From the NCBI GenBank assembly GCA_963793105.1, contig CAWBZB010000004.1, forward strand, positions 156,210 through 220,209: a DNA stretch of 64,000 nt, written 5' to 3'. The translations under genes were made by a program, and so were the position numbers. Source of the stretch: an uncultured bacterium. GTDB taxonomy: Bacteria > Actinomycetota > Actinomycetes > S36-B12. The notes beneath the pieces were generated by a model that searched no databases, was not told the DNA's origin, and was given only the letters and a program-made list of their open reading frames with translations. Shown in pieces: positions 21,848 through 38,737 of this stretch (position 1 is its first letter; each line of letters begins with the position of its first letter).

Positions 21848-21936
21848 GAGGTTCGCCTCCTTGCGTGATGTCTGCCGAGCCTAGCTCCGATCAGACCATT
21901 CACATAGCCCTGCTAAGACGATTAGAAGGCATAGCT

Positions 21937-21953
21937 TCGTCCCACAGGGACGA
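21937..21953. promoter_or_regulatory. palindrome GTCCC-ACA-GGGAC upstream of the MEDS-PucR-cysH genes; operator candidate, or alternatively the terminator of the aldehyde dehydrogenase gene
   Basis: tcgtccc-aca-gggacga at 21937-21953. The core matches GTCCY-N3-RGGAC, which is seen twice at 30679-30707. Lies ~90 nt upstream of the MEDS start and 7 nt past the stop at 21960. Confidence 0.4.
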
Positions 21954-21959
21954 GGTTTG

Positions 21960-23391
21960 CTACTTGCCGTAGCGCGCCCAGTGCGCGGAGAAGATCTCGT
22001 CGGGATCCGCCGGACTCGGAGCGATGGTCCGCGAGACCCACGTCAGATTGACGAAGTGCCGAGCGTTCACGTTCTCCGTGGTGATGTTCCCGCCCCAGGT
22101 GCCGCAGCTCAGACTCAGGGTGAACGGGAGGCCGTTTCGCGCACTGCCGGCCCCCTCGTTGAGATTCTGGTTGACCATGACCCTGGCCGTGCGCGTGCCG
22201 AAGGCGAGGGCGTCAACGTGCTCGTCCGAGGCGGTGTGGATCCCGCAGGTATGCCCGAGGCCCTGATAGGCGGTGATGGCGTTCACCAGCCCGACCGCTT
22301 CATCGATGTCGAGCCGTAGCGGTACACCGCCAGGACGACCGAGAGCTTCTCGCCGGAGAATGGGTGAGCCGGGCCGGCACCATCCTCCTCCACCATGAGG
22401 AAGGTTGCGCCATCGGGAAGGGTGATGGCAGCCAGATCGGCGATGTGCTGGGCTGACTTGGCGATGACGTCAAGGGTCGGGATGTGCCCGCCATCGGGCC
22501 ACATCGCGGCCTGGAGCCGGGTCTTCTCGTCGGGCGTGCAGAGGTAGCCTCCCGCCGCCTGCAGGCGAGCCAGCAGGTCTTCGTAGACGGCGTCGGCAAC
22601 GATCAGAGAGTTGTCGGCAAGGCAGCTCGTCGCCAGGTCGAACGTCTTTCCCGCGGCGATCGTGGCTGCCGCGTCCGCTAGATCTGCGGTCTCGTCGACC
22701 ACATGCACCGAGTTCCCCACCCCGACGCCGTAGGCGGGAGTCCCGGAACTGTAGGCGGCCTTCACCATGGCGGCGCCGCCCGTGGCCACGATGAGATCGG
22801 CCTGGCGCATCAACTCCCGGGTCTTGTCGATCGACGGGGAGACGAGGCCCTGGATCAGGTCTTCGGGCGCACCGACCTGCGCGCAGGCGGCGCGCATGTA
22901 CTCGACGGAGAGCTCGCTGGTGCGCCTCGTGCGGGGATGGGGGGCGACGACGATGGCGTTGCGTCCCTTCAGCGCCATGAGCGCTTTCATGGGGGGGGTG
23001 GCATCCGGACCGGTCGTCGGGATGAGGGCCGCGACGACACCGACTGGCTTGGCGATCTTCACGAGGCCGCGCTCGGGATCCTCCTCGACGACGCCCACGG
23101 TGCGGATACTGCGCATGTCGGCCAGCAGCCCGGTCACGCGCCGGTGGATCTTCGTCACCTTGTCGTCGTACGTTCCGAAGCCGCCCTCGTCCACGGCGAG
23201 TCGAGCGAGCGTCTCGGGGTGATCGCCACCCACTATCGCCCACCCGACCGCGGTCACCAGTGCGTCGATCCGCTCCTGGTCCCAGTCGCTGATCGCCTCC
23301 GAGCCGCGCGGGCTCGAGCCACCACGGCGGCGATCTCATCGGCAACGGTCATTTCGGTTGCGGGCGCGGGAGAAGTCTCGGTGCTCGTCAT
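21960..23391 (-). pseudogene. CoA-acylating aldehyde dehydrogenase (EutE/PduP/SucD/SauS-like), two frameshifts
   Basis: Three fragments. ORF 23254..23463 holds the N-terminus MTSTETSPAPATEMTVADEIAAVVARARAA. ORF 22283..23257 holds the core with catalytic Cys in FDLATSCLADNSLIV. ORF 21960..22286 holds the C-terminus NAITAYQGLGHTCGIHT. Junctions read at ~23298-23304 (..ARAA/EAISDWDQERIDALVTAVGW) and ~22311-22316 (..VYRYG/LDIDEAVGLVNAI). Confidence 0.8.
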
Positions 23392-23511
23392 AGCGGACAG
23401 GCTGGGCCCTGATGCCCCGCCACGGCACCGGCCCAATTGGGCGAAGGTCAGCCGGTATCTCACCCTCCGGGGACATGTGCATCCTGCGGGACAGAAGCAA
23501 TCGTTCGACGC

Positions 23512-25091
23512 ATGACCACGACAGGAATGAACGTACGCAACGACGCCGTGAGCAACGCGGAGTGGCGGAGCCTGATCGACCGATTCGAATCGGGAGAACT
23601 CCAGGGCCCGATCCTCAACATCGACGAGGACTCGGACGTCGAGTACGACGCCATCTTCGTCGGCGGTGGAGCCGGTGGAAGATTTGGTTCCGCCTATCTC
23701 AGGGCGCGGGGCGGCCGGCAGCTACCGTCGACCGCTGGCCCTTCCTGGGCGGCTCGTGTCCGCATCAGGCCTGCGTCCCCCACCACCTGTTCTCGGAATC
23801 GGCGCGCGAACTGGACCTCGCGCGCATCCTGTCGGGCCGGCTGTGGTTCCCGGAGTTCGACGAATCGCGTGCGTCGATTCTCGACCTGGTCGAGCTGTTC
23901 AAGTCCGGCCGGAATAGCGCGCATGCCTTCATGAACTACCAGAGCAAGGAACAGCTGGGGATGGAGTACATCCTCAATGCCTCTGCCACGGTCATCGATG
24001 CCCACACCGTCGAGGTGGCCGGGCGCCGGTTCACCGCGAAGAACCTCGTGCTGGGCACTGGCGCGAGCACGGTGCCGCTCGACGTCCCGGGGATCGACCT
24101 CCCGGGAGTATTCGACTACGCGACCCTCATCGAGGATCTCGACTACGACCCGAAGTCGTGCGTGATCATCGGCGGGTCGAAGGTCGCGATCGAGTACGGC
24201 TCCTTCTTCCAGGCAGCCGGCTGCCAGACCACGATCCTCACGCGCAGCCCGCTGATGACGACGAAGAGCCTGCATCATGTGGACGAGGACGTACGGCAGT
24301 ACGTGGTGAGGGGAATGCGCGATCGGGGCATGTCGATCCTGGAGGGCGCCCATCCGATCGCCGTCGTCGGCACCAACCGGGCCACCGGCGTGACCGTGCG
24401 GCTTGCCGACGGGTCCACCGTGGATCTGCCGTGCGACATGGTCTTCATTGGTACGGGCGAGAGGGCGAACTCCGACCACTATGTCGATGTGCTCGGGGTC
24501 GCCGTCGATGATCGCGGGTCCATCGTCGTCGACGATCACATGCGCACGTCCGTCCCGAACGTCTATGCCGTGGGTGACCTCATCGGCCCCCCGATGGAGA
24601 TGTTCAAGGCTCGTAAGTGCGGGATGACGGCGGCTCGGAACATCATGGGCGAGGACTATTCGTTCGATTTCACCGAGTACCCGGATTTCCTGCATTCGAC
24701 CTACGAGGTCACGTGGGTCGGCTTGTCGGAGGCCGAGGCCCGGGCAACGTTCGAAGACGTCATCGTGATCCAGATGCCGCCACCCGGCGTTCCCCACGGA
24801 GACATCCCGCTGCCGTGCGCCGAGGGCACGATGCTCCTCGCGTTCACTCACCCGGAGAAGACCGGGTTCCAGAAGGCGATCTTCGACGCCAAGAGCCGCA
24901 AGCTGGTCGGAATTCACCATGTCGGCTTCGGGGCCAAGGACTCGTTCCAGTATCTGGACTTCCTCATCCACCGAACTGAGGGACTCACCATCGACGAACT
25001 GGCGGAGATGAACGAACTCTTCCTCAACTCGGGCCACTTCATCCAGTTGTCCCGGCTTCGCGCCGGCGCCATGGAGCTCAGCTCGCTGTAG
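23512..25091 (+). pseudogene. xecC: 2-oxopropyl-CoM reductase (carboxylating), 2-KPCC homologue; one frameshift at ~23721-23726
   Basis: N-terminus in ORF 23437..23934: MTTTGMNVRNDAVSNAEW...YDAIFVGGGAGGRFGSAYLRARGGRQL. The rest is in ORF 23412..25091: TVDRWPFLGGSCPHQACVPHHLF ... VPNVYAVGDLIGPPMEMFKARK ... ELFLNSGHFIQLSRLRAG. It is near-collinear with my recollection of Xanthobacter 2-KPCC, including CxxxxC and the Phe...His replacement of the DSOR His-Glu dyad. Confidence 0.85.
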
Positions 25092-26602
25092 CCCCATCGG
25101 TTGCCAGGGACCGGGCCACGTCAAGGAGCGATGCTCTCGAAGCGTTGTTGGCTGCTCGGCGCTCGACGCGCCAGGCGTCCTCGACCGCAACGAGGGCGCG
25201 AAGAGAGGCGATCTCGTCGCGCACCGCCTGTGGGGCGCATCCGCCAGCCTCGCGTCGAGACGCCACGAGCGTGGCGGGGTCGAGAACGGCTGCCACATCG
25301 AAGGTCGAGCCGGGGTCCGGCATGGCAGAGCCAGTGACGATCCGGGCGGCATCGTCGAGCGATGCCGCCGTGATCCCGCTCGCGTCCTCGAGTGAACGCG
25401 CGACGGCACGCCCCACCACGCGGTAGGCGGTCCGGTAGTCCAGGCCGACACGGAGGACCAGTTCGTCCGCCAGATCGGTGGCGGCGATCTGCTCGTCCTG
25501 AGCGGAACGGGACAGTGCTGAGGTGTCGATGGCGATCGTGCGGATCACTGCCGTCGCCAGTTCGACGATGCGACGTGACAGCACCAGGGACGACGAAACC
25601 TCGCCATACGTGTGCAGCCAGTTGTCCGTCTGCGCCGAGGGTGTCCTTGCAGTGGCCATGAGACCGGTGAGACGCCCGATCAGAGTGCTTGCGCCCGAGC
25701 GGATCACGGCCAGCGCGTACGGGTTGCGCTTCTGCGGCATGAGGACGGACGCCCGGCAGAGGGAGGCGTCCAGGGTGACGAAGCCGAAGGCAGGGCTCGC
25801 GAAGATCTGGAGGTCCTCGGCCAGCCGGTCCGCCGTCAGGGCGGCCTGAACGGCCGCGGCGACCACGTCGATCAGCCCGTCCAGATTCCACATTGTGTCG
25901 CGGGTGTTGCGCCCGACCGCAGCGAAGCCGAGGAGCTCGGCCAGGCCGTCGCGGTCCAGCCCGAGGCGCGTGCCGCCCACGCCCCCCGAGCCGGCGGGCG
26001 AGATGTTCGACCGACGAGTAGCACTGGCGCAGGCGGGGCAGGTCGCGGCCCGCCTCCTCGGCGAACGAGGCGATGTAGTGCCCGAAGGTGGAGGGCTGCG
26101 CCGGCTGCAGGTAGGTCATGTCCGCCCAGAGCGCATCGGCGGTCTCGTCGGCGCAGTCGGCCAGCGCCTGCGTGAAGTCCGAGGTGGCCTGCGCCAAGTC
26201 GAGGATCAACTCCCGGGTGGCGATTCGGAAGGCGATGCGGCCGGCCTCACGCCGAGTCCGACCGAGGTGGACCCAGCCGGCCAGGTCGCCGACTCGCCTG
26301 GTGAGCTCCTTCTCTCGGCTGTTGTAGGCGTCACCGAGCATGACGTCATAGGGGAACTCCTCGACCGGGACAGCGCCGAGCTCGAGAAGGGCAGCGAGAA
26401 GCGTCGGGGCGCGCTCAGCCGGCAGCAGCTCCTGTCGGGCGAGCGTGATGACATGTGCGAGGTCGGCGAGCGTGAGGCCGTCGTGCAGCAGCGGGGCGTC
26501 GCTGAGCTCAAGGGCGTATCCGGCGGCCACCATCTCCGGCGCCGGCCCCGACGAGATCCTGCCGTCGGTACCCAGGTAGCCCTCGGGCGTTGGCGCGCTC
26601 AC
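25078..26602 (-). pseudogene. aspartase/fumarase-superfamily lyase (argininosuccinate-lyase-like), CoM-biosynthesis type; one frameshift at ~26007-26012
   Basis: GTG 26602 follows aaggaggtg and overlaps the upstream stop (GTGA). The N-terminal half reads in the frame of ORF 25121..27460 (VSAPTPEGYLGT...TYLQPAQPSTFGHY...QCYSSV). The C-terminal half is ORF 25078..25980 (NISPAGSGGVGGTRLGLDR...SVLMPQKRNPYAL). Confidence 0.8.
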
Positions 26603-27578
26603 AAGCCACCTCCTTGTGCGAACAGCGTAGGGGCCCCGCCAGTGACGAGGAAGACTGTCGGCCCGCGCTGAGCTCCCGTCCGGGCCTGCGCCAGCAAGGC
26701 TGCCATGGCCTTGGCCCCGAACACGGGGTCGAGGATGACCGCCTCCCTGCCGGCGACGAGATCCGCAGCAGAACGGCCCTCGTCCGAGGCGATGCCGTAC
26801 CCGGGACCGATCCAGCCGTCGACCACCTCCACCGCGGTCCGCGGCGGGGCCTGGATCCCGAGCAGGGCAGCCGTCCCTGAGGCGAGGTCGTAGACCCGGG
26901 TGCGGCACTCCGCGACGGGTCGGCTCACGGTGACGCCGACGACACGGGACAGCATGTCGGCGCCCACGGCCGCGACGAGCCCTGCCTGCGTGCCGCAGGA
27001 CCCGGTTCCGAGCCATACCGTGGGTTTCTCGATCCGCCACCTCGCGACACTGGGCGTCCAGCTCCGTGGCGGCGGCAAAGTAGCCGAGGCTGCCGCGGGC
27101 GGTCGCCCCCCCTCGGGGGAGCACGAGGGGGCGTCGACCCTGCGCACGAAGGCGATCAGCGGTCTCCTCGATCAGCTGGTCGACCGACGCACGGTCCTTC
27201 GTTCCGGTCCACCTGATGCGGGCGGCGGTCCACTCGTGCAGTAGCAGGTTGCCGCGCGCCGCCTCGGGTGCGCTCCCGTACAAGCAGAGCTCCCGACTCC
27301 AGGCCGCATCGGCGGGCCGCCAGCGCCGCGAGCAGGGCCCAGTTCGACTGCGGCCCCGAGCCCGTGACGAGGACATCGCAGCCGTCCTCCATCGCCGCGC
27401 CGAGCAGGAACTCCAATGCTCGGACCTTGTTGCCGCCGAGACCCACGGCGGTGAGGTCATCGCGCTTGAGCCAGATCGGGATCCCGGCGGCCGCCGAGAG
27501 CCGGGGCGCCTCCTGCAGAGGCGTCGGGAACAGGCCCAACGTCACCCGCGGGATCCGATCCAGGACGCCGTCAGGCAT
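26599..27578 (-). pseudogene. PLP-dependent enzyme of the ACC-deaminase/D-cysteine-desulfhydrase family; two frameshifts
   Basis: Fragment 1 (frame of ORF 27156..27980): MPDGVLDRIPRVTLGLFPTPLQ...WLKRDDLTAVGLGGNKVRALEFLL, with the PLP Lys. Fragment 2 (frame of ORF 25121..27460): ELCLYGSAPEAARGNLLLHEW...GGATARGSLGYFAAATELDAQ. Fragment 3 (ORF 26599..27147): IEKPTVWLGTGSCGTQAGL...VFLVTGGAPTLF. Junctions at ~27292-27294 (extra g in a G-run) and ~27040-27050. Confidence 0.8.
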
Positions 27579-28912
27579 GGTCGGGATCGAGAACGCTGTC
27601 AATGAAACGAGAAATAGATCCCAAGGCGTTCCGCGGATCCAGCAGCCTGTCGATCTCCTCGTCGTCGAGGTCCGCCAGGCGAGCGTCTGCGCGAAGTGCG
27701 GAACGAAGGTCGACGTCAGCCTCGCGACCGGCGAGCGCTGCCTCGTACACGATGCGGTGCGCGGTGTGTTTCCCCACTCGATCGGCCAGTGCGCGCATGA
27801 CCGGCTCGGACATGACGTAGCCGCGTTGGGCTTCGAGGTTGCGGCGCATCCGCTCCGCGTCGACCTCGAGGCCGTCGAGGATCCTGACCGCGGCCGCGAC
27901 GCTGACGCCTGCGTAGAGGCATGCCTCGGGAAGCAGGACCCACTCGGACTTCCAGGATCGCCCGTCGCGCTCGTGGCCATGGATCATCGCCTGTGTGGCG
28001 AGATCAGCATCGGCGCGAACGAAACGCGCCAGGCTGCCGACATGCTCGGACAGCTCGGGATTGCGCTTGTGGGGCATCGTGATGCTGCCCACCGTGCCTG
28101 GAGTCAGCGGCTCGCGCAGCTCCCCGATCTCGGACCGCTGGAGCTCGTAGACCTCGTCTCCGATCTTGGCGACCGTGGCCGTGATCATCGCGAGCAGGCT
28201 GACGAACTCGGCGAGGCCGTCACGTGCGGTGAGCCACGGGATCAGCGGACGCCCAGGCCGAAGCCGCCGCGCGAACGAGGCGAGCATGGGTTCGGCTCGA
28301 TCACCCCAGAACTCCATGGATCCCAGCCCGCCGCCCAGTTCGACGAGCTCACGCCGCGGACGGCCCTGCTCCAGCCGTTCGAGGTGCCGGTCGATCTCAG
28401 CGGTCCAGACGGCCGTCTTGAAGCCGAACGTGATGGGCAGGCCGGGCTGACCGTGCGTGCGTCCACACATGATGGTGTCGCGGTGCACCCGCGTGAGGTC
28501 CGCGGCCGCGGCCCGCGCCCGGCGAAGGTCTCGTTGATGATGTCGCGACCCTGCGCATGGCCAGCGCGGACCAGGTGTCGGTGAGGTCCTGAACTGTGGC
28601 ACCGTAGTGACCCACTCGCGGGCCTCCTCCGGAGTCGCGCTCGAACAGCCGGATGAGCCCGAGGGTCGAGTGTCCGGTCATGCGGGTCAGCTCGCCGACC
28701 TCGTTCGGGTCCGGCTGCCAGGCCTGGATCGTGCTCCGGATGGCCCCAGCGGCCGGGGCGGGAACGAGCCCAACCTCAGCCTGCGCCTCGGCGAGTGTCG
28801 CAAGGGATCCGAGCCAGGCGCTCAGTCGACCCTCGTCGGTGAACATCGCGTGGATCTCCGGCGTGGACCAGAGATGGCCGTAGATGGCGGAGTCGACGAG
28901 GTGGGCGCTCAT
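27571..28912 (-). pseudogene. second aspartase/fumarase-superfamily lyase (adenylosuccinate-lyase/carboxymuconate-cycloisomerase-like); at least one frameshift at ~28523-28550
   Basis: N-terminus MSAHLVDSAIYGHLWSTPEIHAMF...GATVQDLTDTWSALAMRRV is in ORF 28397..29119. The rest is in ORF 27571..28602: RARAAAADLTRVHRDTIMCGRTHGQPGLPITFGFK ... GSITMPHKRNPELSE. ATG 28912 overlaps the upstream stop (ATGA). Confidence 0.8.
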
Positions 28913-29837
28913 CTGCGGGCAGCGGTCCCGATGCCCGCAGGTTCCACGACGGGCCCGACCCCCGTCAGCAGCCGGAGGGCCAACCTGACCTCGTCGAGGG
29001 TCGACCCCCACGGAACGACGGCACTGTCTCCGTCGCGCTCGACGCCACGTTCGAGCAGGCAGCACTTGGTCAGCACCAGCGTGCCATGCTCGATCTCCGC
29101 TGCTCGGCGGTTCGGGCACAGGTCCACCTGAGGCGGCTGGTCGCCGTAGAAGTGTCGGTGGAACTGCAACGCAGCGCTCGCACCCGATCAGCGTCCAGTC
29201 CTCGCGGCGCTCAGGTCGGGTGTCGAGGAAGGAGACCTCGCCGGGCAGACCACGCCTGAGCCGCGGCAGGGAAGCAGGTAGCCCGCGGCAGGGTGGTCCC
29301 GTGCCATGAGACGTATGTCCACGGCGTCGAGCACGAGATCTATCGGCGGCAGCTCGTCATCGAATTCGAGGGCCTGCCTTGCCATCTCAAGCAGCTTGGC
29401 CGGTTCCGGCGGGACCACCTCGGTGACGACGATGCGCACGGGCAACGGCCGCCAGATGACGTTGACGTGCTCGTACCTGCCTTTGACCGCATACGCATCG
29501 ACATCGTCACGGCCGAGCGCCCGGCCGCGGCCGCCAGGGCGGTTGCGTTGCCGACGTCGGTGCTCGCGTCCTCGATCCATGCCGTGCGATCCGGTGCCGC
29601 GAGAACACGTGCCTCCGTGACCGGCGAGAAGAGCGGCTCGAAGGACTCCTTGAGCACTGCCACGAGGGCGTGGTCGTCGCCGTTGGCGAGGAGCAGCCAC
29701 TCAGTGCGCCGGTAGACCTCGCGGCCGATCAGGTACTCAAGGATCGCCGACTCGTCAGCCAAGGGGATCTCGACCTCCTGCATCGACAGGCCGCGGTAGG
29801 GGCGAGTGATGCTGTTGGGAGGCGGGGTCGGGATCAC
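28909..29837 (-). pseudogene. unrecognised Cys-rich protein embedded in the CoM biosynthesis operon; about three frame disruptions including an in-frame TGA at 29188-29190
   Basis: Fragments are ORF 29340..29837 (GTG start, MIPTPPPN...EYLIGREVYRRTEWLLLANGDDHALVAV...), ORF 29188..29700 (...VDAYAVKGRYEHVNVIWRPLPVRIVVTEVVPPEPAKLLEMARQALEFDDELPPIDLVLDAV...) and ORF 28909..29169 (FHRHFYGDQPPQVDLCPNRRAAEIEHGTLVLTKCCLLERG...). A high-GC3 alternative frame, LPGEVSFLDTRPERREDWTLIGCERC, bridges the last two. The stop overlaps the next ATG (ATGA). Confidence 0.55.
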
Positions 29838-29850: not shown

Positions 29851-30627
29851 TCACGTGAGGGTGGCGAGTCGGGCCACGGAGGCCGTGTCGGCACGCAGGC
29901 CCAGGCGCAGCGTCTCGAGGGGCAGCACCTCGTCCGGAGGGATGTTCCCGAGATTCACCTCGGGCCCGATCGTGCGCACGAACCAGGCCTGCTGGGCCTT
30001 GTGGGGCGCCTCGAAGATGATGCGATCGACAGGAATCCGACTGGTGAGCGTGTCGATGAGCGTGTCACGTACCGCTCCGTCCCCGAGGTAGATGCCGACG
30101 TTGCCGCTCTCGCGGCCCTCGGCGATCACCCACTGAGCACCCGCCTGCAGATCGGACTCCATCTCGGCGAGCCACTCCGCGGGAACCACAGGAGTGGCGG
30201 CATCCTTCGAGCCCACTTCAGCGGCGACCACGAAGTCCTCGCTGAGCGTGCGGATCAGCTCCTCCTTGCGGGCGGCATCAAGGGCGCCGAGACCGTTGGA
30301 CACCTCCACGGCGGTGATGCCACTGGCCAGGGCCCAGTCGCGCAGCTCCCCGATCCGGCCCTGCGCCGCCGCGATCTCGAGCAGGGTGCCCCCGAGGCTC
30401 ACCAGCACGCCGGCCTCGCGATACGCCGTCACGCGTTCGAACAGGCGAGGATCGACATAGCCGATACCCCACCCGATCTTGACGATGTCGATGAGCCCCG
30501 CCGTGCTCTCAAGGTGGTCCCGCGTGGAAGCCAACCCCAGGCCCTTGTCCAGCACATGCGTGAGTCCCCTGGTCCGGGGCTTGGACTGGCGGGGTGGCAG
30601 CTCGAAGGTACGTCGGTGGGCCCACAT
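29851..30627 (-). CDS. comA: phosphosulfolactate synthase (ComA family; PEP + sulfite), first step of CoM biosynthesis
   Basis: ORF 29851..30627, intact. ATG follows aaggaga. THVLDKGLG...IDIVKIGWGIGYV...VSLGGTLLE...VEVSNG pattern of the ComA (PF02679) family. Confidence 0.85.
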   Translation of the reverse strand: MWAHRRTFELPPRQSKPRTRGLTHVLDKGLGLASTRDHLESTAGLIDIVKIGWGIGYVDPRLFERVTAYREAGVLVSLGGTLLEIAAAQGRIGELRDWALASGITAVEVSNGLGALDAARKEELIRTLSEDFVVAAEVGSKDAATPVVPAEWLAEMESDLQAGAQWVIAEGRESGNVGIYLGDGAVRDTLIDTLTSRIPVDRIIFEAPHKAQQAWFVRTIGPEVNLGNIPPDEVLPLETLRLGLRADTASVARLATLT

Positions 30628-30678
30628 GGTCTCCTTGCGCTGACGGCGGATCGTGCGAGGACGACGCTAGGGCGGGTT

Positions 30679-30707
30679 GTCCTGTGAGGACTCCGTCCTC
30701 TGAGGAC
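30679..30707. promoter_or_regulatory. two tandem perfect palindromes GTCCT-N3-AGGAC (putative operators) in the divergent comA / reductase-operon promoter
   Basis: gtcctgtgaggac at 30679-30691 and gtcctctgaggac at 30695-30707, with a 16-bp repeat period. They sit in the 163-bp divergent intergenic region 30628-30790. Confidence 0.55.
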
Positions 30708-30790
30708 TGACAATGGACCTTACTTAGCACCTTCAGGTCATGTGGCTGGCGCGGCTCCGCGCCTAGGTTCCCCGATGACAAGGAGGAACA

Positions 30791-32128
30791 GTGGCGGACA
30801 GGCTGGTCGTGGTGGGTGGTGGCGCGGCCGGTATGTCCGCGGCGTCGGCGGCCCGCCGAACGGATCCCGCCCGTGAGATCACGGTTCTGGAGTCCGGACC
30901 CTTCCCGTCCTACGGGGTCTGCGGCATCCCCTACTACATCAGCGGGGTCGTTCCCGATCCGATGGCGCTGGTCTCGCATCCCGCCGAGGAGTTCCGGGAC
31001 CGCCGGCGCATCGACCTGAGACTGGAGACGTCGATCGCGTCCATCGACCTCACAGGGCAGGTGGTGACCACCGCGGCTGGGGAGCCGCTCGGATTCGACA
31101 CCCTGGTCCTCGCGCTCGGAGCCCGACCGATCGTGCCGCCCATCCCCCGGGTCGATCATCCGCGGGTCGTGACCATCAGACGCCTGGACGATGCGATCGC
31201 GCTGCGGGGAATCCTGGGAGACGTGCGTCGTGCGGTCGTGATCGGAGCTGGCTACGTGGGGCTCGAGATGGCCGAGTCGCTCTGCGCGGCCGGCATACAG
31301 GTGACCGTGGCCGATCGCCTGCCCCGGGTCATGTCGACCCTTGACGTCGAGGTCGCCGAGATCGTCGAAGAAGAGGTGCGTCGGCACGCCGAACTGATGC
31401 TTTCCAGTTCCCTGATTGCTGTTCACGACCGTGGCGAGGGTCTGACCGTCGAGTTCGCGGATCGATCCGTCGACGCCGACCTCGTCGTCCTCGCACTCGG
31501 TGTACAGCCGCAGACCGACCTCGTCCGCGGGCAGGTGGAGATGACACCCGCCGGAGCGATCCTCGTGAATCGGACGATGAGCACCTCCGTGCCTGGAGTC
31601 TTCGCCGCTGGCGACTGTGTCGCGCTCGAGCACCGGGTCCTGAGGGCACCGGCGTACGTTCCTCTCGGTCCGGCGGCGAACAAGACGGGCCGGGTGGCGG
31701 GCACGGTTGCCGCCGGTGGCTCGGCGACGTTCGGCGGAATCGTGGGCACCGCGGTCGCGAAGGTGTTCGACCTCACGGTCGCGCACACGGGGCTGACGCT
31801 CGCCGATGCGCGCGCGGCCGGCCTGTCGGCCATGGCGACGGACGTGACGGCCAAGTCGCGAGCCAAGTACTACCCGGGGACCGAGCCCGTCCGGGTGCGA
31901 CTTGTGCACACGGAGGCCGGGCGGGTCCTCGGTGCGCAGATGGTCGGCCGCGATGGAGTCGCCCAGCGGATCGACGTGATCGCAACGGCCCTGCACGGCG
32001 AGATGACCATCGATGACATCGCTGCGCTGGATCTCGCCTACGCCCCCCCGTTCTCCCCCGTGTACGACCCCATCACCCAGGCCGCGTCCGCCGCTCAGTG
32101 GGCCATGGCCAAGGCCGGAGCCACATGA
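30791..32128 (+). CDS. CoA-disulfide-reductase/NADH-oxidase-family flavoprotein with a single redox Cys
   Basis: ORF 30791..32128. GTG follows aaggagga. VVVGGGAAG FAD motif, SYGVCGIPYY active-site Cys motif (CoADR/Npx type), second Rossmann VVIGAGYVGLE. Confidence 0.8.
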   Translation: MADRLVVVGGGAAGMSAASAARRTDPAREITVLESGPFPSYGVCGIPYYISGVVPDPMALVSHPAEEFRDRRRIDLRLETSIASIDLTGQVVTTAAGEPLGFDTLVLALGARPIVPPIPRVDHPRVVTIRRLDDAIALRGILGDVRRAVVIGAGYVGLEMAESLCAAGIQVTVADRLPRVMSTLDVEVAEIVEEEVRRHAELMLSSSLIAVHDRGEGLTVEFADRSVDADLVVLALGVQPQTDLVRGQVEMTPAGAILVNRTMSTSVPGVFAAGDCVALEHRVLRAPAYVPLGPAANKTGRVAGTVAAGGSATFGGIVGTAVAKVFDLTVAHTGLTLADARAAGLSAMATDVTAKSRAKYYPGTEPVRVRLVHTEAGRVLGAQMVGRDGVAQRIDVIATALHGEMTIDDIAALDLAYAPPFSPVYDPITQAASAAQWAMAKAGAT

Positions 32129-32847
32129 ACCGAGTTGCGATCGTCACGGGCGCCGGCAGCGGCATCGGCCGCGCGAGCAGCCTGCGACTGCAGAAAGACG
32201 GCATGACCGTGATCTCCCTCGACATCGACGTCGACGCTGCCGCGGAGGTGTCGCCTCACGCCTTGGCGCTGGACGTCTCCGATGCCGCACAGGTGGCCGA
32301 CGTCATGGCCGAGGTCCTCCACCGGTGGCCGCGCATCGATGTCCTCGTGAACAACGCGGGGATCACCGGGTCCGCGCAGGCGACAACGGCGCACGTCACG
32401 CCGATTGAGGAGTTCGACCGGGTCATGGCGGTGAACGTCCGCGGACCGTTCCTCTGCTCTCGTGCGGTGCTGGCGTCGATGATCGACGCGGGTGGCGGCC
32501 ACATCATCACGATTGCCTCGGCCGCGGGGATCGTCGCCTTCCCGGGTCGCTGCGCCTACACGACGTCCAAGGGCGCAGCCGTGCAGCTCGCGCGGTCGAT
32601 CGCCGTGGACTACGGCCGTATGGGCATCCGCTCCAACGCGATCTGCCCGGGGATGGTCGAGACCCCGATGACGCAGTGGCGTCTCGACCAGCCGGATCTG
32701 CGCGATCGCACCGAGAGCCAGATCCCCATGGGCCGGGTCGCCAGCCCCGACGAGATCGCCGACGTCGTCTCCGTCCTTGCATCAGGCCGAATGGGGTACG
32801 CCAACGGCGCCGCCCTGGTCATTGACGGCGGCTGGACCGCCTGGTGA
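32125..32847 (+). CDS. short-chain dehydrogenase/reductase, 2-hydroxypropyl-CoM dehydrogenase-like
   Basis: In ORF 32098..32847. ATG 32125 overlaps the upstream stop (ATGA). Begins MNRVAIVTGAGSGIG. NNAG motif and catalytic YTTSK. Confidence 0.75.
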   Translation: MNRVAIVTGAGSGIGRASSLRLQKDGMTVISLDIDVDAAAEVSPHALALDVSDAAQVADVMAEVLHRWPRIDVLVNNAGITGSAQATTAHVTPIEEFDRVMAVNVRGPFLCSRAVLASMIDAGGGHIITIASAAGIVAFPGRCAYTTSKGAAVQLARSIAVDYGRMGIRSNAICPGMVETPMTQWRLDQPDLRDRTESQIPMGRVASPDEIADVVSVLASGRMGYANGAALVIDGGWTAW

Positions 32848-32873
32848 CCACCACTCCAACGAAGGGAACCCCC

Positions 32874-33647
32874 ATGGCAGGCAGGCTCGAAGGCAAAGTC
32901 GCAATGATCACTGGAGCAGGATCCGGGATCGGCCGCGCGACCGCGGAACTCTTCGCACAGGAGGGAGCAGCCGTCGGGGTGCTCGACATCCGCGCCGACG
33001 CTGCCGGTGAGGTCGCCGCCGCAATCAGCGCCGCGGGCGGGCGGGCGATCGGCCTCGGGGCCGACGTGACCAAGGACGACCAGGTGCGGGCCGCTGGGAA
33101 CGAGGTGATCGCGACGTTCGGGGACATCTCCGTGCTGTACAACAACGCGGGGATCGGCAGCACCGGGGCAGTCGACGTCGCCGAGGAGGAGGACTGGGAT
33201 CGCTGCTTCGACATCAATGTCAAGGGCACCTTCCTGTGCTCCCGGGCGGTCGTGCCATCGATGCTGGCCGCCGGCGGAGGCTCGATCATCAACCAGGGCT
33301 CGGTGGCCGCCCTGGTGGGCGTCGCGAACTTCGCCGCGTACTGCGCCGCCAAGGGCGCCGTGGTTGCGCTCACCCGCTCGATGTCCGTCGACCTCGCCCC
33401 TCGTGGCATTCGCGTCAACGCGATCGCTCCGGGAACCGTCTACACGCCGCTGATGGAGCCGATGCTCACCGCTCGAGGCGGCGGCGACCTCGAGAAGGGT
33501 TTGGCGATGACCGTCGCCAAGTACCCGATCGGCCGACTCGGAAACCCTGAGGACATCGCGGCGGCGGCGCTCTTCCTGGCCAGCGACGAGGCAGCATTCG
33601 TGACCGGAGCGGTCCTCACGGCCGACGGCGGCATGACGACTCAGTAG
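32874..33647 (+). CDS. second short-chain dehydrogenase/reductase, 2-hydroxypropyl-CoM dehydrogenase-like paralogue
   Basis: In ORF 32844..33647. ATG 32874 follows aaggga and gives MAGRLEGKVAMITGAGSGIG. The alternative GTG 32844 overlaps the upstream stop. NNAG motif and catalytic YCAAK. Confidence 0.75.
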   Translation: MAGRLEGKVAMITGAGSGIGRATAELFAQEGAAVGVLDIRADAAGEVAAAISAAGGRAIGLGADVTKDDQVRAAGNEVIATFGDISVLYNNAGIGSTGAVDVAEEEDWDRCFDINVKGTFLCSRAVVPSMLAAGGGSIINQGSVAALVGVANFAAYCAAKGAVVALTRSMSVDLAPRGIRVNAIAPGTVYTPLMEPMLTARGGGDLEKGLAMTVAKYPIGRLGNPEDIAAAALFLASDEAAFVTGAVLTADGGMTTQ

Positions 33648-33657
33648 GGAGTACCCC

Positions 33658-34569
33658 ATGTTCCTCGACCCCGACAAGCGCGTCGACCTCGCGGCGGCGG
33701 CCGGCCATGTCCGCGACGGTGCCATCGTCGCCCTCGGCGGAGGACTCTCCGCCAGGCTGCCGATGGCCCTCGTGCGCGAGATGATCCGTCAAGGCCGACG
33801 CGACCTCCACGTCGTCGGCTCCGCCCACGGCATCGACGTCGACATGCTCATCGGTGCGGGCGCGATCGCGATCTGCGAGGAGAGCTACGTAGGCTTCGAG
33901 CAGGACTTCGGACTGGCGCCCGCGTACCGGCGGGCGGCGAGTGCCGGCACGATCACGCTCCGGGAGAGCTGCTGCGTCACAATCCTCACCCAGCTGAGGG
34001 CCGCGGAGATGGGCCTGCCGTTCCTCCCGGTGAGAGGCATCATGGGCACGGACATGAGGCGCCTTCACCCTGAATACGCACAGACCACCTGTCCCTTCAC
34101 CGGGGAGGTCCTCGTCGCTGTACCACCGCTGGCTCCCGACGTCGCACTCCTGCACGCGCCGATGGGCGACATGCACGGCAACCTGCACCTCGAGCAGCCC
34201 TACGTGCTCGACGAGAGGTTCGCGGGCGCGTCCCGGGCCGTGGTGGCCACAGTCGACCGGATCGTGTCCGCGGACACGCTGGCCGAGGCCGGGGTCACCA
34301 TCCCGGGCTACCTGGTCCAGGCGGTCGCGGAGGTTCCGTACGGGGCCCATCCGGCATCCTGCTATCCCGGCTATGCCTACGATCGCGAGCATGTGGGGGC
34401 GTACGTGGCAGCCGCCAGCAGCGACGAGTCGATCGGCGAGTACCTGCGCGAGTGGGTACTCCTGCCTGATGGCGAGGTCGGATACCGGGCGAAGGTCGGC
34501 GAGGCGAGTCTCGCCCGCATCGCCGGCTGGTCGGAGTCCATCAACGCATGGAAGGGGCTCTTCGCATGA
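33658..34569 (+). CDS. CoA-transferase subunit A (glutaconate-CoA-transferase GctA-like)
   Basis: ORF 33658..34569. ATG follows agggag. DGAIVALGGGLSARLPMALVREMIRQG...HVVGSAHG pattern of family I CoA-transferase alpha subunits. Confidence 0.75.
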   Translation: MFLDPDKRVDLAAAAGHVRDGAIVALGGGLSARLPMALVREMIRQGRRDLHVVGSAHGIDVDMLIGAGAIAICEESYVGFEQDFGLAPAYRRAASAGTITLRESCCVTILTQLRAAEMGLPFLPVRGIMGTDMRRLHPEYAQTTCPFTGEVLVAVPPLAPDVALLHAPMGDMHGNLHLEQPYVLDERFAGASRAVVATVDRIVSADTLAEAGVTIPGYLVQAVAEVPYGAHPASCYPGYAYDREHVGAYVAAASSDESIGEYLREWVLLPDGEVGYRAKVGEASLARIAGWSESINAWKGLFA

Positions 34570-35396
34570 CGTACACGCTGGACGAGTGGTTCGTCGTCGC
34601 GCTCTCGCGCACGATCCGCGACAGGGAGTCGGTCTTCCATGGGTTCGGCAGTCCGTGCGCCCAAGTGGCGATGCACGTGGCGAAGCGGACGCACGCTCGG
34701 GACATGCTGCTCATCGAGGGAGCGATGTACGCCCTCAACCCGGATCCCCCGTTCATCCCTCCAACGGGGAACGATGCGAGCCTGAAGCGGGGCGCTGCCT
34801 ACAGCATGCGTTTCGAGGAGTTCTTCGATGCCGCCATCCGAGGGGACATCGACCGGATGTTCCTGTCCGGCGGCCAGATCGACGCCTACGGCAACACCAA
34901 CGTGACAGTCATCGGGCCGCTCGAGCGCCCCAAGGTCAAGCTCGGTGGCGGAGGCGGCGGATGCAACATCTCGGCGACCATCCGCCGACTCACGTTGTGG
35001 ACCACCCGGCACCGGTCGGGTCGCACCCTGGTGGATGCCTGCGACTTCATCACAGACATCGGGCACCGGACGCCGGCCGGAACACGAGCCGAGCTCGGCT
35101 ATACCGGCGGCGGACCGCAGTGGCTGGTCACAGAGCTCGGCGTGTTCGACTACGACGCCGATGGTCGCGCGCGCCTGCTGCAGGTGTTCCCCGACGTGAC
35201 CGTCGACCTGATCAGGTCCGTGACGGGCTTCGACTTCACCGTGGTGGGGGATCTCCGCACGGTGCCGCCGCCTAGCGATGCCGAGCTTGCCGTGGTCCGC
35301 AGCATCGATCCACTCGGCGTGCGCCGGGGCGAGTTCGACGCGGGCGAGCTGGCCCGCACGTTCGAGCATGCGCACGGGGCCACCTGCGGCTGCTGA
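34566..35396 (+). CDS. CoA-transferase subunit B (GctB-like)
   Basis: In ORF 34548..35396. ATG 34566 overlaps the subunit A stop (ATGA). Begins MTYTLDEWFVVALSR. FLSGGQIDAYGNTN motif typical of beta subunits. Confidence 0.75.
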   Translation: MTYTLDEWFVVALSRTIRDRESVFHGFGSPCAQVAMHVAKRTHARDMLLIEGAMYALNPDPPFIPPTGNDASLKRGAAYSMRFEEFFDAAIRGDIDRMFLSGGQIDAYGNTNVTVIGPLERPKVKLGGGGGGCNISATIRRLTLWTTRHRSGRTLVDACDFITDIGHRTPAGTRAELGYTGGGPQWLVTELGVFDYDADGRARLLQVFPDVTVDLIRSVTGFDFTVVGDLRTVPPPSDAELAVVRSIDPLGVRRGEFDAGELARTFEHAHGATCGC

Positions 35397-35397
35397 G

Positions 35398-37479
35398 ATG
35401 AGCAGCCAGCGCTCGCTTCGCGCGATCTTCGAGCCACGCCGGGTGGCTGTCGTCGGGGCGTCGGAGCGGGCAGGCAGCCCCGGTGCCGTGATCTGGGGCA
35501 ACCTCGCACAGTTCCCGGGCGAGGTGGTGCCCGTCAGCCGCACGTCACAGACCGTCGACGGCCGACTCGCGTACGCGTCCCTGCGGGCAGTACCCGGCAC
35601 GATCGACCTCGCCGTGGTCGCGGTGCCCGCTGCGGCGGCGCTGCAGGTGGTGGAGGACGCCGTGGCCGCCGGAGTGCGAGCCATCGTGCTCGTGAGCGCC
35701 GGCTTTGCAGAGGCGGGCCCGGCCGGCGTCATCCTGCAGGACGAGATCGTTCGCACGGCGCGCGCGGGTGGCGTCCTCCTGGTCGGTCCCAACTGCCTGG
35801 GCGTGCAGAACTGCGACGTGCCGCTGAACGCCTCGCTCGCCTCTGGCATGACCGGTGGCCGCGGTGGCATCAGCCTCATCACGCAGTCCGGCTCCTACGC
35901 GATGGCCGTTCATGCGATGTCCTCGGAAGAGGGTCTGGGTTTCGCCATCGCCTACTCGTCGGGCAACCGGGCCGATATCGACGATGCGGAGGTCCTCGAC
36001 TACCTGCGGGAACACGACCGCACCGATGTGGTCTGCGTGTTCACGGAGTCGTTGGGAGATGGACGCGCCTTCCTCGATGCCGCCCGTCGGACGACGTGCG
36101 CGAAGCCCGTCATCGTCGCTGCGGTCGGGAGGTCCGAAGCTGGGGCGCGCGCTGCCGCGTCGCACACCGCCGCCCTGGCCGCGGACCGGCGCGCGTGGAA
36201 CGACCTCCTTCGCGGCGCGGGTATCACCGTCGCGAGTTCGGGGATCGAGATGCTCGATGCGGCGCGAGTGCTTCAGGACCAGGCGCCGCCAACTGGGCGC
36301 CGGGCCGCGATCATCACCAACTCCGGCGGCACGGGAACGGAACTGGCCGATCTCCTGGCGGACGAGGGAGTGGTCCTCCCGGAGTTGTCCGTGGGCCTGC
36401 GGGCCAGACTCGCCGAACTGCTGCCGGACTATGCGAGTACCTCGAACCCAGTGGACATCACTCCTGTCTGGTCGCGCTTCGCTGAGATCTATCCGGCCGT
36501 GCTCGATGTTCTCGCGAGGTCCGGCGAGGTGGATCTCGTGGTGCCGGTTCTCCTGCACCGATCCGCGGAGGATGCTGGCGTCGCGGAAGGAATCGTGCGC
36601 ACGTTCGAGTCACTGCGCAGGGATGGCGTTTCGGTACCGGTGTACGTGTGCTGGGTCGCCCGGCGATCAGCGTGGGGCATTGCCGCTTCAATGCAGCGCG
36701 CCGGAATCCCCTGCCTGGAGTGGCCGCCGCGCGCCGCCCGGGCGATCGGGCATGCGGTCCGCTACGGGGACTTCCGGCGCAGGACGCAGAGTGAGCCGCC
36801 CGAGCGGGCAGCCGTCCCCCAGCGCTCCCTGCCGCAATCCGTCGGAGTCGACGCGGAGTCGACCTACACGTTCCTGACCGAGAACGGGATTCCGATCGTC
36901 GAGACGATCTTCGTCGCGGATTCGGCTGCGGCGGTGGCTGCCGCGCGACGTGTCGGCTACCCGGTGGCTCTCAAGGTCGATCATCCGGATCTCTCGCACA
37001 AGAGCGATGTCGGCGGCGTTCGCCTCGACCTCGCGAACGACGCTGCGGTCAGCGACGCGGCGTCGGCGCTCCTCGCCGTCGCGCCCGCTACCCGACTCGT
37101 GGTGCAGCCCATGTCGACTGGGGTGGAGGTGGTGATCGGGGGCATTCGCGAGCCGACCTTCGGGCCGGTCGTCGTGTTCGGGCTCGGCGGTGTGCTGGTG
37201 GAGCTCATCGCCGATGTCCGCTTCGCCGCCGCTCCGCTCACGACGTCTGAGTCCGCGAGTCTGGTGAGGGCGCCGAGGGGCGCCGCGATCCTCGCAGGAG
37301 TACGTGGGAGATCGCCCACAGACCTGGGGGCCCTGGCCGCGACGGCGCGCGCGGTGGGTGACCTCATGGCCGCGTACCCGGAGCTGCTTGAGTTGGACCT
37401 CAATCCCGTCCTCGCCGGGCAGGAAACATGCACTGCCGTGGACTTCCGGGCGGTCGTAGTCCGCGCGAACCAAGCCTGA
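35398..37479 (+). CDS. ADP-forming acyl-CoA synthetase (acetate--CoA ligase family, fused alpha/beta)
   Basis: In ORF 35278..37479. ATG 35398 lies 1 nt after the upstream stop. CoA-binding N-terminus (RVAVVGASERAGSPG), succinyl-CoA-synthetase-like ligase domain and C-terminal ATP-grasp (GYPVALKV...SDVGGVRL). Confidence 0.8.
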   Translation: MSSQRSLRAIFEPRRVAVVGASERAGSPGAVIWGNLAQFPGEVVPVSRTSQTVDGRLAYASLRAVPGTIDLAVVAVPAAAALQVVEDAVAAGVRAIVLVSAGFAEAGPAGVILQDEIVRTARAGGVLLVGPNCLGVQNCDVPLNASLASGMTGGRGGISLITQSGSYAMAVHAMSSEEGLGFAIAYSSGNRADIDDAEVLDYLREHDRTDVVCVFTESLGDGRAFLDAARRTTCAKPVIVAAVGRSEAGARAAASHTAALAADRRAWNDLLRGAGITVASSGIEMLDAARVLQDQAPPTGRRAAIITNSGGTGTELADLLADEGVVLPELSVGLRARLAELLPDYASTSNPVDITPVWSRFAEIYPAVLDVLARSGEVDLVVPVLLHRSAEDAGVAEGIVRTFESLRRDGVSVPVYVCWVARRSAWGIAASMQRAGIPCLEWPPRAARAIGHAVRYGDFRRRTQSEPPERAAVPQRSLPQSVGVDAESTYTFLTENGIPIVETIFVADSAAAVAAARRVGYPVALKVDHPDLSHKSDVGGVRLDLANDAAVSDAASALLAVAPATRLVVQPMSTGVEVVIGGIREPTFGPVVVFGLGGVLVELIADVRFAAAPLTTSESASLVRAPRGAAILAGVRGRSPTDLGALAATARAVGDLMAAYPELLELDLNPVLAGQETCTAVDFRAVVVRANQA

Positions 37480-37633
37480 CCTCGTCCGCTGCTGTCAGCG
37501 AAACCACACATTTTCACCCTGCCGGGTCGGGGCTTGTCGCCACTTCTGGCCTTCGAGGGCGAGGCAGCCACGCCCGGACTGCACATACGTTTCTTGGACC
37601 ACGTTCCCGGAGTGGATCCCCTAAGGAGTCTCT

Positions 37634-38737
37634 ATGAAGGTTGGATCGAGCGACATCCTGCTGCCCACCACGATGGTCGGCAACTACCCGAACCCACGGT
37701 GGTACGACGGCCACGCGTTCGCCACGTACCCCAAGGGCGAGTTCGTCTACGACGCCATCAGTCGCGAGGCATACGAGGATGCCGTGGGCGCAATCGTCCA
37801 CGATCAGGAGTCGGCCGGACTCGACATCATCAGCGACGGCAAGGTCTACGGGGGCGACTCGCCGTACGGCCAGATCCTCTACCACTACATCGAGCGGATG
37901 TCCGGCTACAAAGCGTCGGGGCCCCCCATCGGGCTGCCCATCTACTCGACCCTGTACAGCCCGACGGCCGTGGGAGAGGTACGCCGCGAGCACCCGTTCC
38001 ATGGCGCCGCGCTGCGCGCGATGAAGAAGGCCACCAAGAAGCCGGTCAAGGTCTCCTACACCGGCATGCAGGTGCTGGCGGCCGCCAGCACGAACCAGTA
38101 CTACCCCGAGGTTCGCGACCTCGCGATCGCGATCGCGAAGGCCTTCAATGAGGACTTCAAGGAACTCGCCGACAACGGCTGCGACATCATTCAGATCGAC
38201 GAGTTCGTGTGGCCGTACGGAATGGGCGATTGGGAGATCGAGGTGTTCAACACCGCAGTCGAGGGTGTGGGATGTCAGATCTGGACCCATACCTGCTGGG
38301 GCAACTACTCCGGCACGCCAGGCTACTTCCCCGACGACGAGGAGACCGAGTTCGGCGCTTGGGTCCTCGACAAGCGGCCTGAGGACGCTCCCGCCCCCGA
38401 GCGGGCACTGGCCATCTTCCCGCACGTGAAGAACGCCAACATGACCGCACTCAATTACGAGGTGGGCCGGACCGGCGAGGATGACCTGAAGCCTCTCGTC
38501 GACAACAACTGGGACAAGGACTTCGTGGCGGGCATCATCGATGTCAAGAGCACGATCACGGAGACGGCGGACGAGGTTGCCGACCGCATCCGGATGGTCC
38601 TGAAGTACGTTCCCGCAGAGCGACTCGGTCTCAGCACGGACTGCGGTCTCATCAACCTGCCGCGCATGGTGGGCTACGGAAAGCTCCGCGCACTTGCGGA
38701 CGGTGCGGCGATCGTGCGCAAGGAACTGAACGCCTAG
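37634..38737 (+). CDS. etnE: epoxyalkane:coenzyme M transferase (MetE-C-terminal-domain zinc alkyltransferase)
   Basis: ORF 37634..38737 (367 aa). ATG follows taaggag. MetE-like barrel with Zn-ligand motifs H-x-C (IWTHTCWGN) and C (LSTDCGL). Size and N-terminus (MKVGSSDILLPTTMVGNYPNPRW) fit EaCoMT, and the context holds CoM genes. Confidence 0.8.
   Translation: MKVGSSDILLPTTMVGNYPNPRWYDGHAFATYPKGEFVYDAISREAYEDAVGAIVHDQESAGLDIISDGKVYGGDSPYGQILYHYIERMSGYKASGPPIGLPIYSTLYSPTAVGEVRREHPFHGAALRAMKKATKKPVKVSYTGMQVLAAASTNQYYPEVRDLAIAIAKAFNEDFKELADNGCDIIQIDEFVWPYGMGDWEIEVFNTAVEGVGCQIWTHTCWGNYSGTPGYFPDDEETEFGAWVLDKRPEDAPAPERALAIFPHVKNANMTALNYEVGRTGEDDLKPLVDNNWDKDFVAGIIDVKSTITETADEVADRIRMVLKYVPAERLGLSTDCGLINLPRMVGYGKLRALADGAAIVRKELNA

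Follow-up and report, generated by a model that had tools for sequence, protein, structure and literature searches.

Paired GTCC-N5-GGRC inverted repeats as candidate operators of the epoxide-responsive activator EtnR1/EtnR2 in a coenzyme M island of an uncultured actinomycete

Tandem palindromes between comA and the oxidoreductase gene

Two perfect palindromes lie side by side between comA and a divergent gene for a flavin adenine dinucleotide (FAD)/pyridine-nucleotide-disulfide oxidoreductase in an uncultured actinomycete of the S36-B12 lineage, and the question addressed here is which protein, if any, they serve. The DNA analyzed, called the window below, is a stretch of 64,000 bp (assembly GCA_963793105.1, contig CAWBZB010000004.1, positions 156,210–220,209). 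An initial annotation, made from the letters alone, had interpreted the palindromes as a small operator regulon of a dimeric regulator and had proposed a PucR-family protein encoded nearby as the binder. Our analysis supports this proposal by the position of the sites, their recurrence upstream of the regulator gene etnR2, the co-occurrence of motif and regulator genes, and the published gel shift and promoter truncations for Mycolicibacterium chubuense NBB4. We consider it likely that the palindromes are operator sites of the epoxide-responsive activator EtnR1/EtnR2, with EtnR1 as the presumed DNA-binding partner. This interpretation is based on sequence conservation, geometry, co-occurrence and the published genetics and gel shift of NBB4, from which we infer the base contacts of EtnR1, the transcription starts, the cooperativity and the role of the additional palindrome.

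Direct reading of the window confirmed both palindromes, GTCCTGTGAGGAC at 30679–30691 (site 1) and GTCCTCTGAGGAC at 30695–30707 (site 2), with centers at 30685 and 30701, that is, at the annotated separation of 16 bp. As had been reported, both are located within the 163 bp gap between comA (29851–30627, minus strand; Pfam ComA) and the oxidoreductase gene (30791–32128, plus strand; identified by Pfam), which leads a catabolic operon. The variant GTCCCACAGGGAC was likewise found at 21939–21951, 92 nt from the GTG codon of a gene encoding a MEDS-domain protein (about 90 nt had been given). A lone AGGAC half-site does exist on the plus strand, at 30658–30662 and not at ~30654–30658 as annotated. 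It falls at about +1 of the comA promoter (P_comA), and a function for it is not supported: it has no partner at 32 bp, and a comparable GGAC was seen only in locus L008.

The strict pattern GTCCT-N3-AGGAC occurs twice in the window against 0.11 matches expected, a number reached by one of 100 shuffles, and a relaxed pattern occurs five times against 0.81 expected, which none of 100 shuffles reached. Genome-wide, the strict pattern was found eight times in 3.16 Mb, an ordinary count for a 5-N3-5 palindrome of such composition, and the 35 relaxed matches are mostly located in coding frames with high GC content at the third codon position. Therefore, a single palindrome is neither special nor diagnostic. 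What is special is the presence of two perfect copies 3 bp apart in intergenic DNA; according to a rough estimate, the chance that any two of the eight strict sites lie within 30 bp of each other is ~5e-4. Taken alone, the relaxed pattern matches coding DNA too often for a regulon to be delimited by it, and single-site searches, either with the annotated pattern or with an 18-nt weight matrix, were abandoned as a means of finding regulon members since most of their matches were coding; a scan for cores paired at 32 bp, described below, is specific.

It can be supposed that the palindromes arose by chance or act as DNA or RNA structures (cruciform, terminator or riboswitch) with no protein partner. 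Indeed, a nested hairpin (-8.8 kcal/mol; z = -2.5) can form from the tandem, but such a hairpin is expected of any palindrome pair of this kind. No terminator, riboswitch or other Rfam family was found in the region, which is probably untranscribed because it lies between divergent promoters, and the relatives described below retain the half-sites and their spacing, not the ability to fold. Chance is also opposed by the shuffles and by the statistics of the etnR2 upstream regions and of the paired scan, so that we regard this explanation as highly improbable.

A conserved pair of inverted repeats 32 bp apart

Phylogenetic footprinting, another check named in the initial annotation, was carried out on 80 comA loci from genome collections together with those of NBB4 (two plasmids) and Nocardioides JS614; about 100 comA and etnR2 loci were compared overall. 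In 77 of the 84 loci, drawn from across Actinomycetota, comA was found to be preceded at the same position by an element in the register of site 2. Its non-redundant weight matrix (38 clusters, near-duplicates down-weighted) reads T-GTCC-Y-N4-GG-R-C-N-A-R, which makes it an inverted repeat of the 4-N5-4 type: the left half-site, GTCC (positions 1–4), is strong, the right one is GGRC (positions 10–13), and each of them is conserved. The centers of the half-sites are 9 bp apart, about one helical turn, as in other operators of the PucR family. On the comA strand a TANNNT hexamer is located 24–25 nt from the element in every lineage, and the element is kept upstream of comA even in loci with no divergent gene. 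The footprinting upheld a conserved GTCC-N5-GGRC element and not the tandem spaced by 16 bp as the conserved unit; site 1 was found in no relative. Footprinting at close range was given up because no close relative carries the island: within the genus, comA is present in one of the 22 other genomes listed (46% identity), and the best ComA identity anywhere was 64–69%, with 68% for the loci of the closest relatives, L008 and L009.

Comparison of the same loci revealed a second site exactly 32 bp from the first. Where the oxidoreductase gene is divergent from comA (30 loci), core scores average +10.6 at the element itself (offset 0) and +5.35 at offset +32, against about -15 at typical offsets and no more than -7.9 at any other. 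The peak at +32 recurs in the group of loci containing comA only (+0.4; median, -15.8) and at etnR2 promoters (+1.1; median, -15.9), i.e., in three independent promoter classes in total. The second site reads (c)ttc-GCCC-N5-GGRC-ATGG and is followed after 37–38 nt, in most of the 30 loci, by the hexamer TAGCGT, TACCGT or TAGGTT; in L008–L010, xAnnnT variants take the place of this -10 hexamer. CTTCGCC and CATGG, which we had considered as separate boxes or as a -35 element, proved to be the flank and the right edge of this second operator.

Site 2 of the window is paired with GCACCTTCAGGTC at 30727–30739, which is followed by ATGT and lies exactly +32 from site 2. This partner is weak (4.1 bits) and aligns with the conserved GCCC-N5-GGRC-ATGG element of the 30 loci. 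On the basis of these comparisons, the conserved and presumably working unit is a pair of GTCC-N5-GGRC repeats 32 bp apart, not the 16-bp tandem. In a genome-wide scan for cores paired at 32 bp, the three best non-coding pairs, at window positions 21907, 30695 and 17597, were all located in the island, and five of the best 12 non-coding pairs in the 3.16-Mb genome fall there. The 21907/21939 pair is the top-scoring 32-bp pair of the whole genome.

To describe the position of the pairs relative to promoters, we took an xAnnnT hexamer as the -10 box and placed the start 7 nt beyond it; positions such as -43 and -75 thus rest on inferred -10 boxes. With this rule, the regulon appears to comprise about eight promoters of the island, more than the initial annotation had seen: those of a luciferase-like monooxygenase gene (P_LLM), an alpha/beta-hydrolase gene (P_hydrolase), etnR2 (P_etnR2), an aldehyde dehydrogenase gene (P_aldDH), a gene similar to that of 2-ketopropyl-coenzyme M oxidoreductase/carboxylase (2-KPCC; P_2KPCC), comA (P_comA), the oxidoreductase operon (P_oxidoreductase) and etnE (P_etnE). 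All eight have one geometry, with the center of the proximal site at -42 to -44, that of the distal site at -74 to -76, and the -10 box 36–38 nt beyond the proximal site. PucR-family activators often act from two sites that lie upstream of the -35 region and overlap it, and the inferred boxes place the pairs in this position.

In the two divergent regions with a shared pair, a distance of 119–120 bp separates the inferred starts, and the proximal site of either promoter is the distal site of the opposite one. In the comA–oxidoreductase gap, site 2 is the canonical operator copy: P_comA would use it as its proximal site (~-44) and the oxidoreductase promoter as its distal one (~-75), with the site at 30727–30739 in the proximal position (~-43) of the latter promoter. 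Conserved spacing suggests TAGCGT (30664–30669, minus strand) as the -10 box of P_comA, 24–25 nt from site 2, and TAGGTT (30764–30769, plus strand) as that of the oxidoreductase/etnE operon.

It should be mentioned that the corresponding segment of the NBB4 promoter Petn has been read in a different way. Moratti et al. (2024; PMC11197473) defined no operator and assigned TTGTCT and AATAAT, 9 bp apart, as the -35 and -10 boxes; Petn shortened by 60 bp kept 80% of its activity, and the response was abolished when 80 bp were removed (PMC11197473). Truncations that delete both boxes are thus inactive, as would be expected if the GTCC element and the A-rich box formed a core promoter with a 9-bp spacer and not a regulator site. 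In our alignment, the segment TTGTCT-cacgcggcc-TAATAAT coincides with the conserved element; the 80-bp truncation cuts its GTCT half-site (bases 61–80 hold the motif), and the 60-bp truncation spares the element. We find the core-promoter explanation very unlikely. A 9-bp spacer is incompatible with recognition of the sigma-70 type, and no sigma-70 consensus was found in the region of the window. Furthermore, the element is an inverted repeat, is paired at exactly 32 bp and is present upstream of comA even in the absence of a divergent gene, while an xAnnnT hexamer is found 36–38 nt past the proximal site and, in leaderless loci, 7 nt before the start codon. The latter distance is what suggests a leaderless transcript in the Actinomycetospora loci. 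In addition, no RNA-seq reads of the NBB4 authors were mapped to the intergenic region (PMC8784404).

Promoters of the extracytoplasmic function (ECF) or sigma-54 type were also considered and rejected: neither GGAAC/CGTT nor GG-N10-GC was found at conserved positions. To our knowledge, Actinomycetota have no sigma-54, which together with the missing GG-N10-GC pattern led us to drop the sigma-54-type reading.

The regulator genes and a proposed mechanism

The MEDS gene of the window (21224–21847, minus strand) is an etnR2 homologue present in a single copy in the genome; its product is a MEDS-only sensor protein (Pfam MEDS, E 1.6e-43) with 47% identity to NBB4 EtnR2. Downstream of it are a gene of the PucR/CdaR type (19549–21206, minus strand) and then cysH. 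The PucR-type gene is an etnR1 homologue (47% identity to NBB4 EtnR1; Pfam GGDEF_2 and HTH_30 in 19549–21033), whose product is the candidate DNA binder, and no other MEDS/EtnR1 pair is found in the genome. Among 19 EtnR1 orthologues taken from distant lineages, the recognition helix HRSTLKYRLQRIR, within the segment L-x-V-HRSTLKYRLQRIRE, shows at least 90% conservation; the other two PucR-type proteins compared, both encoded in this genome, have a different sequence there.

The etnR2-etnR1-cysH promoter contains a pair of the same kind. The variant palindrome at 21939–21951, which reads GTCCCTGTGGGAC on the gene strand, is its distal operator (center at ~-74), the proximal operator is GTCTTAGCAGGGC on the gene strand at 21907–21919 (center at ~-42), and TAGGCT at 21878–21883 is the inferred -10 box. 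Because the regulator genes would be under the same control as their targets, positive feedback (autoregulation) is predicted.

The link between motif and regulator extends beyond the window. When a matrix built from comA sites, with the window excluded, was applied to 30 etnR2 upstream regions, 12 of them reached 12 bits or more, as compared with 0.39 in dinucleotide shuffles (200 shuffles, maximum 3), and NBB4 and JS614 each contain two sites 32 bp apart upstream of etnR2. An etnR2 homologue was detected on the comA contig in all 30 genomes tested, mostly 5–30 kb away, and an etnR1 homologue near comA in all 12 tested genomes of the comA-only group. Within the family to which the window belongs, the two genomes with a motif-bearing comA have etnR2 next to it, and 17 of 18 genomes with a motif-less comA have no etnR2. 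This motif-less class (L121–L134; ComA ~50% identical) served as a negative control. Its regulation, and possibly its role, must differ. A conserved AT-rich block, tcctatactacg...ttcactttacgaca, is located upstream of comA in these loci.

Could the repeats be operators of another regulator, such as a repressor working in parallel with EtnR or a global factor encoded at an unlinked locus? The contact of EtnR1 with these very bases is a deduction, site 1 lies where repressors usually bind, and in the comA-only group a second palindrome covers the -10 box. However, the motif and etnR2/etnR1 strictly co-occur and are absent together, the sites precede etnR2 itself, and the recognition helix of EtnR1 is nearly invariant. 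Pfam revealed no other DNA-binding domain in the open reading frames of the island that were scanned, and EtnR1 shifts a Petn fragment of NBB4 (PMC8784404). We therefore think that control by another regulator is improbable.

The system described here is a further member of the known EtnR1/EtnR2–Petn kind; the new elements are the operator model and the reassignment of the Petn boxes. Activation of NBB4 Petn by ethylene oxide requires both the MEDS protein EtnR2 and EtnR1, a protein of the CdaR/PucR type (PMC11197473), and etnR1/R2 are induced ~8-fold by ethene (PMC8784404). The likeness extends to the divergent gap between comA and the FAD oxidoreductase gene (163 bp here, 167 bp on pMYCCH.02 of NBB4), to the identity of both regulators, and to the downstream genes for a short-chain dehydrogenase/reductase (SDR), coenzyme A (CoA)-transferase, acyl-CoA synthetase and EtnE. 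On pNOCA01 of JS614, the gap between the genes for phosphosulfolactate synthase and the FAD oxidoreductase is 164 bp. In contrast to NBB4, where the regulator genes are part of the catabolic operon, etnR2-etnR1 of the window are located 9 kb away on the other strand together with cysH, the genome has no etnABCD monooxygenase, and site 1 is an extra perfect operator. The element itself is read here as an operator and in the published work as -35/-10 boxes.

Among PucR-type activators, GabR of Corynebacterium glutamicum offers a close parallel: it binds two inverted repeats between -87 and -23, far better when both are present (PMC7652997). It likewise activates a catabolic operon from paired repeats in a divergent intergenic region, and the repeats of the window span ~-82 to -37. 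The GabR repeats are, however, 21 bp long and unrelated in sequence, and GabR has no GGDEF-like domain and needs no MEDS partner. In other members of the family, namely PutR/PrcR and AdeR from Bacillus subtilis and MabR from M. tuberculosis, inverted repeats of 17–24 bp are recognized, and MabR forms dimers and tetramers compatible with palindromic DNA (PMC7652997, PMC13599513, PMC11617747). These proteins share the C-terminal PucR helix-turn-helix acting on inverted repeats; they differ in having other half-sites and in being single-component regulators, and no 32-bp paired layout is described for them. No likeness was found between GTCC-N5-GGRC and the published PucR-family boxes compared with it (PucR WWWCNTTGGTTAA, IppR, GabR, PutR), which suggests a specificity particular to the EtnR1 clade. 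DcmR of Methylobacterium DM4, the archetype of the MEDS domain, resembles EtnR2 in that a MEDS sensory domain is tied to the control of a pathway for a small C1/C2 electrophile. Unlike EtnR2, which has no DNA-binding domain and activates together with EtnR1, DcmR has its own helix-turn-helix and is a repressor.

It can be hypothesized that the epoxide is sensed by the MEDS-only EtnR2 and that the signal is passed to EtnR1, which would bind DNA through its C-terminal helix-turn-helix, one dimer per GTCC-N5-GGRC repeat. Two repeats 32 bp apart, i.e., three helical turns along one face of the DNA, would be filled jointly by a higher oligomer. The proximal repeat (~-43) would abut a weak -35 region and recruit RNA polymerase, as in class II-type activation. 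Between comA and the oxidoreductase gene, one pair would drive both promoters, site 2 being proximal for comA and distal for the catabolic operon, and the site at 30727–30739 the reverse. The same module may act upstream of etnR2-etnR1-cysH, the aldehyde dehydrogenase and 2-KPCC genes, etnE, the luciferase-like monooxygenase gene and the alpha/beta-hydrolase gene.

Several observations weigh against EtnR1/EtnR2 control through these sites. The etnR1 gene is frameshifted as assembled: the homology changes frame near 21084–21090 beside runs of G4 and C5 (tblastn matches in two frames), and a genuine frameshift would make relics of the sites. The putative -10 boxes were chosen by their pattern and their conserved spacing, several of the partner sites are weak (1.8–5.3 bits), and site 1 was found in none of the other loci compared, including the closest ones, L008 and L009. 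The motif carries little information in a genome with 70% GC, where equal-scoring single-site matrix matches are mostly located inside genes. Finally, the distal site of NBB4, whose promoter is the only one studied by experiment, is the most degenerate (GTCT..GGCC), and the authors assign TTGTCT and AATAAT to the -35 and -10 boxes (PMC11197473).

Taken as a whole, the following joint interpretation seems to us somewhat better than an even proposition. GTCC-N5-GGRC pairs spaced by 32 bp would be the EtnR1 operator, and the published -35/-10 boxes of Petn would be the distal operator, with the true -10 box ~70 bp downstream. A shared pair would drive divergent promoters in mirror image from starts ~119–120 bp apart. 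The regulon would include up to eight promoters, the module would be conserved across many cultured and uncultured Actinomycetota, including genomes without an alkene monooxygenase, and site 1 would turn the activator into a brake on coenzyme M (CoM) synthesis.

EtnR1/EtnR2–Petn is the only described whole-cell biosensor for epoxide/ethylene and controls the genes for vinyl chloride and ethene degradation. An operator model specifying the half-sites, the 32-bp pairing, the -43/-75 positions and the moved -10 box would permit rational tuning of the biosensor and would explain how CoM synthesis and epoxide catabolism come under joint control. It also provides a sequence signature for regulon prediction in uncultured Actinomycetota; for this genome, the predicted regulon gains the luciferase-like monooxygenase, the alpha/beta hydrolase, the aldehyde dehydrogenase and the 2-KPCC-like enzyme. 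For the wider field, the advance is incremental, adding a well-behaved case of a PucR-family activator.

Site 1 and other features of the island

Site 1 (30679–30691) is the best core match in the genome (15.3 bits by the core weight matrix; per-position chance <1e-5) and has no partner at +/-32 bp. It occupies -34 to -22 of P_comA, i.e., the -35/spacer region, its center being at ~-28 relative to the inferred promoter of comA and at ~-91 relative to that of the oxidoreductase gene. Relative to site 2 it is half a turn out of phase, at a distance of 1.5 turns. Because of its high score, the regulator that binds site 2 should bind site 1 as well, and site 1 is probably also bound. With low confidence, we suggest that it dampens transcription of comA when the regulator is abundant, or that it increases occupancy locally and so makes up for the weakness (4.1 bits) of the proximal catabolic site.

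A different possibility is that site 1 is a neutral local duplication, a gene-conversion product or an assembly artefact of site 2, and that only the canonical pair works. Site 1 is missing from every relative, the two 14-mers GTCCTNTGAGGACT are identical save for the N position, and a tract of probable consensus errors adjoins at 19549–29837. At the same time, site 2 retains its canonical distance to both -10 boxes, so that no net insertion of 16 bp has taken place and a simple tandem duplication of this length was rejected as the source of site 1. Any protein binding site 2 should also bind such a high-scoring core, and additional adjacent sites are present in other loci as well (JS614 upstream of etnE, 17 bp apart; L096; L105). 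On balance, we consider a non-functional copy rather unlikely, with an appreciable chance left to it, and prefer to view site 1 as an additional operator.

In JS614 (locus L006, 15128–15157, at the end of the acyl-CoA synthetase gene, upstream of etnE), a perfect GTCCTGACAGGAC is followed 17 bp on by GTCCGCCCTGGGA, a tandem resembling sites 1 and 2 of the window at a different promoter. In L008 and L009, a different inverted repeat, GAGAAT-N8-ATTCTC, fills the spacer of the comA promoter where the window has site 1.

The remaining predicted operator pairs are distributed over the island. A shared pair, GGCCCAATTGGGC (23430–23442) and ACCCTCCGGGGAC (23462–23474), spans 23430–23474 between the divergent aldehyde dehydrogenase and 2-KPCC-like genes. 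The luciferase-like monooxygenase gene has a pair on the minus strand (17597–17641; distal 17629–17641, proximal 17597–17609) and an inferred -10 box TACGTT (17567–17572), from which it would be leaderless at ATG 17560. In all three genes, the inferred -10 boxes end 7–8 nt before the ATG (23392–23511, 17558–17572), and leaderless transcripts are therefore predicted. The alpha/beta-hydrolase gene is preceded on the plus strand by a pair at 17720–17764, composed of a distal GTCCCGCCGGGCC (17720–17732) and a weak proximal ACCTCGACAGGCC (17752–17764), and by the putative -10 box TAGCGT (17789–17794). Upstream of etnE, the pair at 37516–37560 (plus strand) consists of ACCCTGCCGGGTC (37516–37528) and GGCCTTCGAGGGC (37548–37560), with a putative -10 box TACGTT at 37586–37591.

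The oxidoreductase operon further includes genes for two SDRs, a two-subunit CoA-transferase, an ADP-forming acyl-CoA synthetase and the epoxyalkane:CoM transferase EtnE (37634–38737, plus strand; 84% identity to EtnE of JS614). Homologues of CoM biosynthesis genes present in the island are comA, DUF7714, a lyase gene and a gene for a pyridoxal phosphate (PLP) enzyme. No tblastn match to EtnA, EtnB or the partial EtnC of JS614 was found in the 3.16-Mb genome. Thus, this is an epoxide-only coenzyme M island in which etnE is present and the linkage to the etnABCD monooxygenase is absent; that linkage is a mark of the known alkene-oxidizing hosts and not of the regulator itself.

Compared with JS614 proteins, the island neighbors of etnE are 40–74% identical against 84% for EtnE, which hints at a separate, more recent origin of etnE. 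In the same comparison, most minus-strand genes in 19549–29837 are split into two or three frames (etnR1, the aldehyde dehydrogenase gene, both lyase genes, the PLP-enzyme gene and the DUF7714/xcbA-like gene), and all seven genes of the plus-strand operon (30791–38737) align unbroken.

Two further features were seen in genomes of the comA-only group. Dozens of genomes of uncultured Actinomycetes and Streptosporangiaceae (loci L029–L079) have a perfect palindrome with 8-bp arms, CTATGGTG-N6-CACCATAG, ~10–35 nt upstream of the comA start, where it overlaps with the putative -10 box of comA (TATGGT). This palindrome might function as a further operator, possibly of a repressor, or form a leader hairpin. 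Ten genomes (G015–G022, G025 and G026) carry two or three tandem etnR1/etnR2 paralogue pairs within ~20 kb of comA, where etnR2 often comes after a gene of the MetE family resembling etnE.

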